This document shows, one piece after another, positions 32,833 through 49,012 of a stretch of 64,000 nucleotides of DNA. Source of the stretch: Adineta vaga (taxonomy: Eukaryota; Animalia; Rotifera); assembly GCA_021613535.1 (NCBI GenBank), contig CP075494.1, positions 11,346,001 to 11,410,000 of the forward strand, read 5' to 3'. The notes under the pieces were generated by a model, which was not told where the DNA came from, did not search any database, and saw only the letters and a list, made by a program, of their open reading frames with translations. The translations under genes were made by a program, and so were the position numbers. Position 1 is the stretch's first letter. Each line of letters opens with the position of its first letter.

Positions 32833-33813
32833 TTATGAAAATAATGTTTGTTCTTCTCTTAAACCTTCTACTCCACATTCGACAAATTGAATCGATTTAA
32901 TAGGATTATCTTTTAATAGTTCTAAAACTTCTTCTTTTGTAAACGTTGTTGTCAATGCAATCAGACAACCACCACCTCCAGCACCAGTAATTTTCGTAGA
33001 AATCTTATTTTTCAATAAAATTTCTATAATTTGATCAATTTCTGGTGTCGATACACCTAAACTTTTCAATAATCGTTGATTCTCTTGAAATAATTGATTG
33101 ATTTCTTCCGGATGTTCAACCATCGTATCCACACATGTTTCAATTTCATTTAAAATCTTTTCTCCATCATTAGGATTACTTTCCACAAATGAACGAACTA
33201 AACTAACCATTCGTTTCGTCGATTTCGGAATACCCGTATCAATAATCGCTAAATTTGATAGATGAAAGTTCAAATGTTTTTTCAATGTTCGACTATAGAG
33301 AAGTGATTGCCCAAATGTACTAATCGTATTATCAATACCAGACGGTGTACCATGAAAAAGACATTCAATTTTATATGCTAATTGATTGATCTCTTCAGCA
33401 TTGAGTGTTTCATGAGAAAGAAGATAAAAACAACCAACAAGACAAACACTAAATGCTGCACTAGAACCAAGACCAGCACCAATAGGAATTTCAGAACGAA
33501 CTTCGATATTCAATGTATTCCGATCAGATAACAACGATTTGAAATGATTGTATGCATAAATTACCGCTTGAATTTCAATCGGATGTGAACCAGAAGATTC
33601 AGATAAGTCAATTGTATAACGTTGATTTGTATCATGCAATAAGACATTCAATAGATGTTTATCAGTTTGATTGCTAGAGTTTTCATCTACAGTTAACTGC
33701 ATGTATAATCGCATACCAATACTAGTCACCAAAGCTCGTCGACCGTAGACAACAGCATGTTCTCCACCGATAATTAATTTTCCAGGTGATGAAACAATCA
33801 CAGTTTTTTTCAT
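32833..33813 (-). CDS. MVK: Mevalonate kinase (GHMP kinase), intronless
   Basis: SPGKLIIGGEHAVVYG, SEIPIGAGLGSSAA, HGTPSGIDN and KITGAGGGGC. ATG at 33813. Confidence 0.92.
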   Translation of the reverse strand: MKKTVIVSSPGKLIIGGEHAVVYGRRALVTSIGMRLYMQLTVDENSSNQTDKHLLNVLLHDTNQRYTIDLSESSGSHPIEIQAVIYAYNHFKSLLSDRNTLNIEVRSEIPIGAGLGSSAAFSVCLVGCFYLLSHETLNAEEINQLAYKIECLFHGTPSGIDNTISTFGQSLLYSRTLKKHLNFHLSNLAIIDTGIPKSTKRMVSLVRSFVESNPNDGEKILNEIETCVDTMVEHPEEINQLFQENQRLLKSLGVSTPEIDQIIEILLKNKISTKITGAGGGGCLIALTTTFTKEEVLELLKDNPIKSIQFVECGVEGLREEQTLFS

Positions 33814-34058
33814 CTTCAATAATACTATTCAAACTCTTCGCTTTCAAAAGAGACAAAAACGAACTAAAGATAAGAAAGAGATAAGTTCGTATATCGTTCG
33901 ATGTTAACTAATTCCTCAGTTTCATTTCATTGTATTATGTCAAAAAAAAGACAAAGAAACATGGTTTTTTTCTATATTTTAATTTTTAAATGCTAAAATA
34001 CATTATCTTTTTCATCAAATAAAATGAGTTCATCTTGAATATTGAGATATCATTAGAA

Positions 34059-42404: not shown

Positions 42405-44027
42405 TTACCAATCACATTGTTGATAATCTTTTAGAAAACAACCATATGGAATAGTGATATCAGTTTTTCCTTCAGCTATTTGTCGATATGTATCAATAAT
42501 TGGATCAAGAACACGTGCTGCTGCATCTTCTTCATCAAGTGGTGTTTGAAAATCATATTCAGTCATGACTTTATATGCTAGGTCTAATGGTTTTTCATCA
42601 TTAATCCAACCTAGACAGAAAAGCAAAATGAAAATTTCTATTTTTTCTTTGTTTATATTTAATCTAAACATACCTGTATCGACAGAAACCATATAAATAT
42701 TGGATTTTTTATAATCACTTGCTGATGTTCGTGTCATCATATTCAAAGCTGCTTTCGCTGCATTTGTATGAGGATGTCGAGTTGTTTTGTTTTTGCGAGA
42801 AAATGAACCTTCCATTGCTGAAACATTGATAATAAACTTCTTGCTTTCAGGATCGGGATGTTTATTTGCCATAAGAACTTTTAATTTACTATTAAGAATA
42901 AATGGTGCTAATGTATTGATTGTTAGAACTTCATTGATTTCCATTGTAGATAAATCATCAAGACGTAACATCCATGAATTAGTTGAACGAAAATCAATGG
43001 GTTGTTGATTGACATCATACGAATTGGTACTGACCATGGAAGAAGTAGAAGAAGAAGAAGAAGAAGAAGAAGATAGAAGTGAAAGTGGTAAATATGTAGA
43101 CGTATGTTCAAGAAGATGATCAGATGATGGACATAATTTTTTATAAAATTGCAGGTTTCCATCAAGAATTGCTTGATTCTCATTTGATAAAAGTGCATAA
43201 TTAGCTAATCGTTCATGAGCAATTAAATGTTGATAGAATTCTTTTGGACGTTGAATAGTTTGACAAGCGTTATTAATTAAAAAATCTAATTTATCATATT
43301 TATCGACAAGCATTCGAGTAAATTCTTCAATTAATTGAACAAAACGTAAATCAACAGCATATATATGTATACGAGTTTTCCATTGATCGAAATCATGTTC
43401 TTTATTTAAACGATTCAAGAAATCAACTGGAAATCGACTTGTTGCAATAACGAAACAATTTGCACGAAGTAATTTCAAAACAATTCGATAACCTATTTTC
43501 AATCGACCACCAGTAACTAATGCTATTCGATTGGAAAGATCCGCTGTTTGTGTCCGTTTCGAAAAGTTGAATGCAGCACATGCTGGACAGAGACGATCAT
43601 AGAAAAAATGTAATGTACGAAATTTAAGTTTACATATATAACAAATGTTGCGTTCAAGAAGTCGTAAAGGAGCATTTGTATTTGTTGGTGCTGATGGTGC
43701 GAGTGAAGTTTGAACAGTTCCATCAGGGACGAGAATATCTTGTAATTGAAGTTGTTGTAGTTTTTCAGCACGACCAGCACGAAGTAAACAAGAATTTTTT
43801 GCTTTTCGATCGACTTGTTTTAATTGAAGACGTTTATCCTGTAATCGTTTCTTATAAAAACGTTTGTGTGCATGAAATAGACTGTGAATCATTGGACGAA
43901 GACGATCATGATCAGCAGACTCGAGTTCCGAATATGTTTGATGAGAGCAAAATTTCTGCAGAACTTTAATACATGTTTCTAAATCATCAGCCGATATAGG
44001 CGATGATATAGGCTCATCGATTGACAT
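42405..44027 (-). CDS. Atypical short-chain dehydrogenase/reductase with N-terminal CxxC...CxxC motif, bacterial/protist-type; one 63-nt intron (42611-42673)
   Basis: CYICK...FFYDRLCPACA, LVTGGRLKIG, LINNACQT, NVSAMEG, HPHTNAAKAALNMMTRTSA, VDTG|WINDE and PLDEEDAAARVLDPI. A gtatgt...tctag intron interrupts VDTG-W. Confidence 0.85.
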   Translation of the reverse strand: MSIDEPISSPISADDLETCIKVLQKFCSHQTYSELESADHDRLRPMIHSLFHAHKRFYKKRLQDKRLQLKQVDRKAKNSCLLRAGRAEKLQQLQLQDILVPDGTVQTSLAPSAPTNTNAPLRLLERNICYICKLKFRTLHFFYDRLCPACAAFNFSKRTQTADLSNRIALVTGGRLKIGYRIVLKLLRANCFVIATSRFPVDFLNRLNKEHDFDQWKTRIHIYAVDLRFVQLIEEFTRMLVDKYDKLDFLINNACQTIQRPKEFYQHLIAHERLANYALLSNENQAILDGNLQFYKKLCPSSDHLLEHTSTYLPLSLLSSSSSSSSSTSSMVSTNSYDVNQQPIDFRSTNSWMLRLDDLSTMEINEVLTINTLAPFILNSKLKVLMANKHPDPESKKFIINVSAMEGSFSRKNKTTRHPHTNAAKAALNMMTRTSASDYKKSNIYMVSVDTGMFRLNINKEKIEIFILLFCLGWINDEKPLDLAYKVMTEYDFQTPLDEEDAAARVLDPIIDTYRQIAEGKTDITIPYGCFLKDYQQCDW

Positions 44028-44591
44028 CGTAAATAAATTTTTCTGATAATAAAATTACGTTACATTCAAGGTTTTTATTCGAGTTATTATGATGATGCAA
44101 TATTAAACATGTGATGATGTAGCGTCAAGTATTTATGTTACTTAAACAGAAACGGTCGTTACATGACTGTTATTTCACAATTTCGATGCAAAAGTTATAC
44201 TACTCATTTAATTTATATTTTGCCGTCACTTCCGATCTGTCAATCTAAAAACATCGAATCATCCTATATTTTTGATCCCATACTAAATTTCATTCATGTT
44301 AATTCGTTGAATATCTGATAGATCTATGCCGCGCGTATATAGTATGCATGGAGGACAGAACATTTTTTCTCTGCCGTCATACCAGACCTCCTGTTAAAAA
44401 ATTAAGATAACGTGATTTGATGTTATTCAACAGTTGAAATTGAGAAGAGAGTTGTAAGAGAAACTAACGCTTTCTTCAATTTGTAATTAAATATCTCCAT
44501 AACAAAACAACTGTATGTTGTTAATTAAATAATTGTACGAAATTCTTTTCTTCTTCTTTGCGCATTACATCAGTTTTATATTGAAAATAAC

Positions 44592-45010
44592 ATGTTGAAA
44601 TATTTCATCATTGGCCTATTTGTAATTTCAAGTAATTTCATAAGCAAAATTTTTGTACACTGATAAAATATAATTTCTTATTTCCTTCAGTTATTATTTC
44701 ACCTATCAATGCGTCAATACGTATTTGTAATCAAGGTGGATATATTGCCAAATGTTACCTTGAATCACGATCACTAAGTTATGGATTTCGAATTCATCGT
44801 ACTGATACTGGCTTATTTCCTGTAGCACAATGTGAAACAATGGATATACCATTTGATGCTGTTTGGAATCGTTTAGAATGTAAAGAATTGGCTTTTATTG
44901 CTGTATATAAAAGTATTTTCGTACAAGAATTCGCTTCAGCTATGTATAATTATTGTTATGAAATTACCGGAACAACATTAGCTCCACGATGGTCTCAAAC
45001 ACAATGTTAA
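44592..45010 (+). CDS. Secreted 119-aa protein resembling cholesterol-dependent (thiol-activated) cytolysin domain 4; exons 44592-44631 and 44691-45010
   Basis: Spliced translation MLKYFIIGLFVISIIISPINA-SIRICNQGGYIAKCYLES...ECKELAFIAVYKSIF...YCYEITGTTLAPRWSQTQC*. Signal peptide, 6 Cys, and AATAAA just after the stop. Not in the ORF track. Confidence 0.75.
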
Positions 45011-45691
45011 TTGTTGTAAATAAAAGAAAAAAGGGATCAAGATGTTTTTTTGAAATAAAAATAGTTTCTTGTTCTTTCTGATTAAAAAGGAATGCTTTTT
45101 GCTCATCAGCATAAGTAATTTATTAAACGATATGTGCGGATGTACACTTTTTTTCTCTTAGAAATAAGTAATGATCGTAAAAAGAGAAAATACTGAATCA
45201 ATGATACGCTAATAATCAAGAAAAAAAGCTTTTTATATCAAAATCTATGACGCGTAACAGATCAAAATATAGACAATATTGAAAGATAGACGCTACGCAT
45301 AATGACAAAATATTTATATGAGGAAGGTCGTTGTTCTAAATCGAGGGAGGTTTTTCTACACATTTTATCAATTTCACCTCTTCAGGAATTCGTTTATATA
45401 AGTTATATATATATATATAGACACACGATGATCTGTCTAATCGACAACTGATGACATCTATAATAAGTTCATGTTCTTGGTGTATAAGTAGATTAAATCG
45501 AATGTATCGTCGAATGCTAAGCCATTTGAGAAAAATTCTAACAATTCAATGAATCATTAGTACAGATTCCACTTTTCTTTCAGTCGATTGATATATAAAT
45601 GTAATGTTGTCTGTTTTTTTTCTTCTTATTTCAGATTTTGATTAGATTCTTTCTTACACCGGTGAGCAAAGCAAAATTCAATTAATTCAAC

Positions 45692-46998: not shown

Positions 46999-47669
46999 AT
47001 TTTTGGATTTTTTTCTATTTTTCTTATCAGCGAGTTTATTACGTCCATGCGCATATGTGTATAGAAAAATGAATCTTGTTCGATTCAATCGGCAGTGGTT
47101 TTTTTCTTTGCTCAATGTGTAGCTTTGCATTCTATTCTTCGTTTTTCTTCTTTCAGAAAAACAACTAACTACACTTTTCCTTCTATTTCTTACAATTTTA
47201 TGCTCATTTGTCAACATATGTGCACACTTTATTCGTATATACATACATATTATATATATATATATATTCCTTTCAACTAATGTCTTTATTATTCTTGTTT
47301 TAATGGGTGCACAACGAAAATAACGTTGATATAGGAAGAATTTACTTAATTCGATTCTTTTTCTAGAAATGATATCATATTCGAATGAAATCTATGGTTA
47401 TAGATAGCAACTTCTTTTTGTTTTCTGAAGAACAGTATATTCGATGTAATGTTTATTTAATTGAACAGCTTATTTTTAAATAAACATTTTCAATAACTTA
47501 TCATCAAGTTTCCCTACAGAACTTTCTGAAGAAGACTACTTTATTGAAATAGATCTATGCTTCAAAAAAATCTATCATACGTTGATGATAGTTCGAAATA
47601 CTAACATTTCTGGCTTGATTTTTTAAACAACTACAGAAAAATGACAGTCATTATTTTTCTTTTGTAGAT

Positions 47670-48965: not shown

Positions 48966-49012
48966 TAATGTTAGTTTTGTTTTGTTCTTTTTCAGATAGA
49001 ATAGATAATTGA

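Follow-up and report, generated by a model that had tools for sequence, protein, structure and literature searches.

The gene, its transcript and its surroundings

The window analysed here, a 64-kb stretch of Adineta vaga DNA, is AT-rich (~30% GC) and eukaryotic in character. On its + strand it carries a small two-exon gene that starts with an ATG at 44592 and, as read from the sequence of the window, encodes a 119-aa product. A sequence-only reading had proposed a two-exon gene at this position and described it as hidden. The exon structure is borne out by both the sequence and spliced contigs; hidden the gene is only in the sense of being missing from the track of open reading frames, as its spliced product is identical to I4U23_025580, a hypothetical protein of A. 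vaga (P0067). The gene is thus already annotated, though without a name. Its parts are as follows:

44542..44591, + strand: 5′ untranslated stretch, minimum extent (a contig of run X1 begins at 44542 and is colinear, without a joint)
44592..44631, + strand: coding exon 1, which holds the start codon and the larger part of the hydrophobic, signal-peptide-like stretch (sequence, contigs)
44632..44690, + strand: intron of 59 nt, GT..AG, phase 1, within the signal peptide (skipped in contigs)
44691..45010, + strand: coding exon 2, with the end of the signal peptide, the mature domain and the stop codon (sequence, contigs, annotated protein)
44714..45007, + strand: mature domain of 98 aa and 11.3 kDa with six Cys, a predicted beta-sandwich resembling domain 4 as found in cholesterol-dependent cytolysins (CDCs) (model, profile alignment, Cys covariation)
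45011..45088, + strand: 3′ untranslated region to the poly(A) site at 45088 (poly(A) loose ends, X1 contig end)

The splice joint 44631>44691 is present in contigs of three of four runs (X1, X3 and X8, which carry three study codes), and a contig of the fourth run, X10, retains the intron and lacks the joint. Poly(A) loose ends fall at 45088 in two of four further runs (X2 and X7), and the X1 contig also stops at this position. The runs have no RNA label on record, and the transcript origin of the contigs was judged from splicing and poly(A); contig depth was not taken as a level of expression. Splicing at 44632-44690, which had been suggested as a check on the gene model, is therefore seen in contigs from three studies. 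An in-frame stop codon lies at 44526-44528, just 5′ of the 5′ untranslated stretch, and because 44542-45088 is spanned by one contig with this joint alone, the transcript codes for nothing larger. As to expression under infection, the one small supplementary file of PMC10809525 held no match to the gene, and the listed rows of a table in PMC12220480 gave only numeric chance matches.

The neighbourhood is unremarkable: a short-chain dehydrogenase gene lies upstream, EH-domain and mTERF genes lie downstream, and the third-position GC content of the gene (GC3 0.15) falls within the range of four neighbouring ORFs (0.13-0.19). The intron, the matching GC3 and the ordinary neighbours together argue against bacterial contamination. 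No second copy of the gene was found within the 64-kb window.

Several further observations concern the surrounding DNA. Three long ORFs on the - strand, encoding a GlcNAc 2-epimerase (206-1396), a GHMP kinase (32833-33828) and the short-chain dehydrogenase (42405-44054), are possibly further foreign genes. Two neighbouring genes show a common feature: directly behind an AG acceptor, at 45633 (+) and at 48994 (+), contigs from two runs start with the same 9-10 loose letters; this looks like spliced-leader trans-splicing, and the letters presumably resemble the bdelloid spliced leader. No such end was seen at the domain 4-like gene among the contigs of the runs examined. A skip of 50 nt with the non-canonical ends TA..TC (47342-47393) occurs within the EH-domain gene's 3′ region, in contigs that come from two runs of a single study.

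Homology to domain 4 of the cholesterol-dependent cytolysins

The first 21 residues of the product are signal-peptide-like by hydropathy, with predicted cleavage after 44713, and the protein is likely secreted; the call draws on hydropathy and on the database names of paralogues. The composition given by the sequence-only reading, a signal peptide followed by about 98 residues with six cysteines, was confirmed by count. The same reading had likened the mature part to a stand-alone CDC domain 4, and on this the predicted fold and the family profile agree.

An AlphaFold2 model built with 84 sequences is all-beta, with a pLDDT of 94.4 and a pTM of 0.84. Compared with 48,161 PDB representatives (VIA), its top three matches are CDC chains (Z 13.9, 13.6 and 12.7), which superpose on the model at an rmsd of 2.0-2.5 Å over 97-98 residues. 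The best of them is domain 4 of pneumolysin (Z 13.9, 2.0 Å, 97 of 98 residues); the first unrelated chain follows at Z 9.0. Foldseek likewise placed CDCs in every row listed down to rank 32 (E 3.4e-06, TMq 0.67-0.76), at an identity to CDC domain 4 of only 11-18% in these matches. The comparison with CDC domain 4 that had been proposed thus gave a predicted beta-sandwich with CDCs on top. An earlier, weaker model from the rotifer-type alignment alone (pLDDT 68.7) also had CDCs at the top in Foldseek and was ambiguous in VIA, where an unrelated domain came out best at Z 8.0, ahead of pneumolysin domain 4 at Z 7.5.

A check against the Thiol_cytolys_C profile, also proposed earlier, came out differently for direct and indirect searches. 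PF17440 (gathering cut-off 23 bits) gave no match to the window protein or, with E allowed up to 10, to any of the 27 members of the alignment, searches of Pfam and PDB sequences with the single protein or with rotifer-only alignments yielded nothing useful (one chance match, E 1.3), and the ESM Atlas held no usable match to the window protein. The family profile, by contrast, does match CDC domain 4s: searched against PDB sequences, 26 of its 27 matches are CDCs, among them suilysin (E 1.6e-12), listeriolysin O (LLO, 1.2e-10) and perfringolysin O (PFO, 3.7e-08). In the opposite direction, a profile of 42 non-rotifer domains from 32 PF17440-positive proteins scores the mature protein at 61.3 bits, compared with a maximum of 6.5 over shuffled sequences (1000 shuffles, of which 895 were reported) and -0.7 for the reversed one; these 32 proteins were retrieved with a rotifer profile, and each clears Pfam's own cut-off. 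With the direct searches empty, the link between the rotifer protein and the CDCs is visible solely via intermediate relatives. On profiles and model taken together, we regard homology to CDC domain 4 as firm.

The nearest relatives allow the loops to be placed. The first 26 matches are all 63-80% identical to the window protein, and the named ones come from Adineta and Rotaria; we refer below to clade A (27 domains) and to a second clade, B, which was added by a profile search and includes a second A. vaga gene, I4U23_007866. Two named proteins of A. vaga are found among the database matches as paralogues. The profile search also yielded P0052, a distant 111-aa protein of 38% identity that clears the PF17440 cut-off. 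Reading the family alignment through the profile-to-PFO alignment gives the following register (mature numbering):

44729..44749, + strand: equivalent of L2, residues 6-12, with N6-A12 matching PFO H398-A404 (profile alignment, conservation)
44813..44824, + strand: equivalent of L3, residues 34-37 (LFPV) matching PFO D434-A437 and more hydrophobic than in PFO (profile alignment)
44876..44881, + strand: E55-C56, the 'EC' of the sequence-only reading, with C56 matching PFO A456 and covarying with C14 (alignment, covariation)
44885..44911, + strand: residues 58-66, a shortened, Trp-free hydrophobic loop in the place of the undecapeptide (alignment)
44969..44986, + strand: equivalent of L1, GTTLAP, with G86-P91 matching PFO G488-P493 (profile alignment)

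The three motifs on which the original comparison was built are all present and in the order claimed, yet they did not fare equally well. The Thr-Leu pair is kept: T88-L89 (44975-44980) aligns with T490-L491 of PFO, and the pair is found in 25 of the 26 clade A domains with letters there, from two named genera. The pairing of ECKELAFIAVY with the undecapeptide ECTGLAWEWWR, on the other hand, fails. From the conserved Pro46 the alignment runs gap-free, so that C56-K57-E58-L59 corresponds to A456-R457-E458-C459. Within the undecapeptide, E58 matches E458, L59 matches C459, V64 and Y65 match W466 and W467, K66 matches R468, and A463-W464 are deleted. This leaves the protein without the undecapeptide Cys and without any of the three Trp. 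We rejected the identification of the rotifer 'EC' with that of the undecapeptide, as it is three residues out of register and its cysteine belongs to the core and covaries with Cys14. The spacing of 31 residues between EC and GTTL, which had been set against about 30 in perfringolysin, was counted correctly; the true E-to-G spacing is 28, the loop being two residues shorter, and since ECKEL and ECTGL were paired three residues off, the agreement was partly luck.

Conservation follows this register. All 27 clade A domains keep the equivalents of G400, Y402 (Y/F), V403 (V/I/L), A404 and V470 (V/I), and the equivalents of G488, T490, L491 and P493 are kept in 26, 25, 26 and 25 of them; the tip loops of the clade are hydrophobic and near-invariant. 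The position of T460 is Thr in none of the 27. No cysteine occupies the undecapeptide Cys column in any of the 257 family domains, no Trp occurs in the equivalent loop of the 45 domains of clades A and B, and the last loop Trp is replaced by Tyr in all 45. Across the family the Thr-Leu pair occurs in 125 of 257 domains and in clade B in 2 of 18, where Ala stands at position 58 in 17 and Ile at 88 in 16; among bdelloid subfamilies the tip pair varies between TL, IL, IF and TF. Relative to CDC domain 4, the family profile has its long first hairpin shortened by about 11 residues.

The six cysteines fall into the inferred pairs C5-C40, C14-C56 and C81-C98. In the 212 domains outside clades A and B, the partner of C81 is present in 153 of 162 domains that have C81 compared with 2 of 50 that do not; for C14 with C56 the figures are 14 of 15 compared with 5 of 197, a count that leans on related bdelloid-like sequences; and for C5 with C40 they are 2 of 2 compared with 1 of 210, a small count. 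This covariation suggests three disulfides in the mature domain, and in so far backs the earlier expectation that disulfides were probable. The C-terminal pair, C81-C98, is common to the rotifer protein and its bacterial relatives.

A broad family of free domain 4-like proteins

Scanning 1.84 billion representatives in full with the profile brought 197 matches at E<=0.001, the best 150 of which were retrieved; outside the close bdelloid clades, E values reach down to 2e-31. Among these best 150 are 147 new distant relatives; a match to PF17440 at E<=0.001 is seen in 46 of them, and 32 score above its cut-off. CDC pore-forming domains were found in only 3 of the 147 when scanned. The remaining relatives scanned include small proteins that stand alone, arrays with up to five domains in tandem, and fusions in which the domain is joined to papain or astacin proteases or to ricin-B, tectonin, F5/8-C, LamG, B-lectin, CAP, PASTA or phosphoesterase domains. 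The fetched proteins comprise 160 with a single domain and at most 170 aa (some of them fragments), 29 with several copies, and 46 longer ones with a single copy, which in 37 cases is at the C-terminus. Complete stand-alone bacterial genes of 110-115 aa (L001, L002 and L006) come from an Ectothiorhodospiraceae MAG, a Chitinophagales MAG and a Clostridium novyi plasmid, and among their neighbours that were scanned or annotated there is no gene for pore-forming domains 1-3. A hydrophobic N-terminus is absent in 81 of the 102 other stand-alone proteins, some of which are fragments.

Judged by sequence, the nearest relatives of the rotifer protein are mostly not toxins; they belong to a short-loop domain 4-like module that occurs in environmental bacteria and in some eukaryotes. 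Compared with the bacterial module, clades A and B have two more Cys pairs and the Tyr in place of the last loop Trp. Free bacterial domain 4-like proteins are already implied by database annotation; the papers found put no function of the module on record, and the literature search, in which subscription journals were thinly covered, brought up no description of this gene or of the free family. Named eukaryotic carriers are bdelloid subfamilies (Adineta, Rotaria, Didymodactylos), Brachionus calyciflorus, Bemisia tabaci and Parthenolecanium corni, and the Brachionus, Bemisia and Parthenolecanium relatives also have hydrophobic N-termini. For the distant member P0093, the top look-alike clusters in the ESM Atlas, with 112 and 85 members, consist mostly of eukaryotic sequences, Mucoromycota being the commonest source, which suggests, as a lead only, a fungal family of small domain 4-like proteins. 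No phage relative of P0125 was found.

In a tree of 52 hand-picked domains of the 257 (95 columns, unrooted, bootstrap not fully settled), all 13 named bdelloid domains lie on one side of a branch (97/88), inside a less certain group (82/96) to which the Brachionus domain also belongs. The domains of the two hemipterans stand apart from the bdelloids and from each other. Gene transfer into bdelloids is common. The homology to domain 4 stands, and the idea of a domesticated toxin domain is weakened: with pore-forming domains in only 3 of 147 relatives, and with complete stand-alone genes in bacteria, the rotifer gene more likely derives from a module that was already free. A bacterial origin is inferred from the distribution. 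We envisage an old transfer of such a stand-alone module into rotifers, after which the gene would have acquired an intron, a signal peptide and two further disulfides and would have expanded into at least four bdelloid subfamilies.

Some members of the family have architectures of their own. P0084 (1176 aa) combines SpvB and TcdB middle domains, as in Tc-toxin B, with a domain 4-like domain at ~1050-1140, near the C-terminus. P0068, P0069, P0070 (the latter two from Saprospiraceae), P0072, P0074 and P0088 have a signal-like N-terminus and three to five tandem, Cys-closed repeats; some tandem-repeat proteins carry the repeats behind papain or astacin protease domains, and such repeats are a possible avidity-based targeting tail. 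P0121, P0168, P0190 and P0250 join domains 1-3 to a short-loop domain 4 with a degenerate undecapeptide and the C-terminal Cys pair, and are atypical CDCs. Stand-alone hypothetical genes occur on eight Clostridium plasmids, and the one on C. novyi pCN2 (L006:3968-4315) sits among trypsin-like peptidase genes and glpQ. The LRR-fused A. steineri models P0046, P0057 and P0062 were rejected as real architectures, since LRR and domain 4-like parts also exist as separate proteins; they look like gene-model fusions.

Possible functions and comparison with known systems

Domain 4 is usually seen as the anchor of bacterial toxins. The predicted fold of the rotifer protein is common to domain 4 of pneumolysin, perfringolysin O, listeriolysin O and suilysin (PF17440), and the protein keeps the Thr-Leu of L1, the GxY-hydrophobic-A of L2 and the conserved Pro and Gly. 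It differs from them in lacking the undecapeptide Cys and Trp, in a loop two residues shorter, in its six cysteines and in the absence of domains 1-3. The protein is not a CDC toxin: the four-domain architecture (PF01289) and the Trp-rich undecapeptide are absent; the 119-aa product, as had been claimed, has no pore-forming domain, and none is encoded elsewhere in the 64-kb window. As a domain 4 homologue it may, going by alignment and model, bind as CDC domain 4 does.

The reading we prefer, and whose chances we would put at about even, is that of a secreted, disulfide-locked, non-lytic binder of sterol-bearing surfaces, acting as a tag, sensor or scavenger. The Thr-Leu loop would read accessible sterol, the hydrophobic L3 together with the short hydrophobic loop would stand in for the Trp anchor, and the protein would sit on sterol membranes as a monomer, without forming pores; sterol on microbial or food membranes would in this way be tagged, sensed or captured. 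As described in PMC3390400, recognition of cholesterol by CDCs falls to the Thr-Leu pair; after recognition, L2, L3 and the undecapeptide insert and anchor, with the Trp residues helping to anchor in the bilayer, and the undecapeptide provides allosteric coupling to the pore-forming changes of domain 3. Loss of the undecapeptide may have been tolerated here because its known coupling job targets domain 3, which is absent. In PFO, T490-L491 is reported as the recognition motif, Y402, A404 and P493 as residues of the adjoining pocket, and ergosterol as a weaker ligand than cholesterol (PMC5744101). According to PMC11416283, E458 of PFO tolerates small hydrophobic residues and T460 is intolerant of change, selection on cholesterol enriches bulkier hydrophobic residues in L3, and I, V or A at 490 with F or W at 491 can work; the Ala58 and Ile88 of clade B loosely parallel these alternative motifs selected in vitro. 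Against a sterol-binding role speaks the loss of the undecapeptide Cys, of all three Trp and of the T460 Thr, the Trp and Cys being aids to anchoring in CDCs. The GTTL motif may also be partly structural, since the pair is kept in fewer than half of the family domains and is rare in clade B.

The main rival, which we think unlikely though deserving of weight, makes the protein a secreted lectin-like binder in which the domain 4 fold serves to bind microbial or mucus glycans and the role of GTTL is mainly structural. Isolated domain 4 of four CDCs is reported to bind glycans, in three of them independently of cholesterol (PMC7244308), and the Trp anchor is gone. The tandem arrays and the ricin-B, tectonin, F5/8-C, LamG and B-lectin partners also fit: with many relatives bacterial, tandem or lectin-linked, the family suits a general surface or glycan binder. 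The hydrophobic, near-invariant tip loops of clade A, however, suit a lipid surface. A binder of lipid or protein surfaces without sterol specificity (a coat, mucus component, adhesion protein or receptor ligand) would explain why Thr-Leu is missing in about half of the family and why the pair varies among bdelloid subfamilies, and it has a precedent in intermedilysin, one of the CDCs that bind a protein receptor, CD59, through domain 4 (PMC3390400); the exact Thr-Leu pair in all but one of the clade A domains, across two named genera, makes it quite improbable in our view.

The sequence-only reading had also considered the targeting half of a two-component effector, or a toxin decoy. Two-component CDC-like toxins do occur in Bacteroidota (PMC11169675), and the four atypical CDCs above bear the same short-loop domain behind domains 1-3. 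Against this, the best tblastn match to domains 1-3 in the 64-kb window spans only 13 residues (E 0.47), the three stand-alone bacterial genes likewise have no such gene beside them among neighbours scanned or annotated, the coupling undecapeptide is lost, and in the known two-component systems described in PMC11169675 the anchoring subunit has domains 1-3 itself. The targeting-half idea is weakened accordingly, and we consider a role in a two-component pore-former, or as a decoy blocking bacterial cytolysins, very improbable.

The sterol-binding reading can be extended, in a form that we hold only as a rather doubtful conjecture. CDC domain 4 would be one branch of a free sterol-recognition module without the Trp loop, which in bacteria occurs alone, in arrays and as enzyme tails, and from which rotifers, sap-feeding insects and possibly Mucoromycota would separately have made secreted sensors or scavengers. 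Bdelloid paralogues with TL, IL and TF tips would then each recognise other sterols, distinguish the membranes of fungi or food from those of the animal itself, and make up a family for sterol-pattern recognition in innate defence or nutrition. Genes for sterol C24-methyltransferase are reported in bdelloids (PMC10692144), whose own sterols may for that reason differ from cholesterol.

What the locus offers is the predicted domain 4 fold as a natural, free and likely secreted animal protein, a member of a broad unnamed family. It presents a natural test of a point long debated, namely whether the Thr-Leu loop suffices for sterol recognition without the Trp-rich undecapeptide. If binding is confirmed, the family would be a source of sterol probes that are small, non-toxic and stabilised by disulfides, with tips that vary and may be selective for ergosterol or plant-type sterols, and it would provide a candidate recognition molecule for bdelloid defence or sterol uptake. 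Engineered PFO domain 4 probes are laboratory constructs with the full undecapeptide, whereas the rotifer protein is natural, free of the Trp loop and predicted to be disulfide-locked. What the two would have in common is an isolated, non-lytic domain 4 (PMC5375790). That animals have captured full CDCs has been published before: the leafhopper CDCs described in PMC13670155 are also a co-option by horizontal acquisition, mostly with signal peptides and in some cases non-lytic. They differ from the free domain 4-like gene, however, in being full-length proteins of 490-680 aa with pore-forming domains. A whitefly gene, too, is annotated as a thiol-activated cytolysin (PMC5426028).
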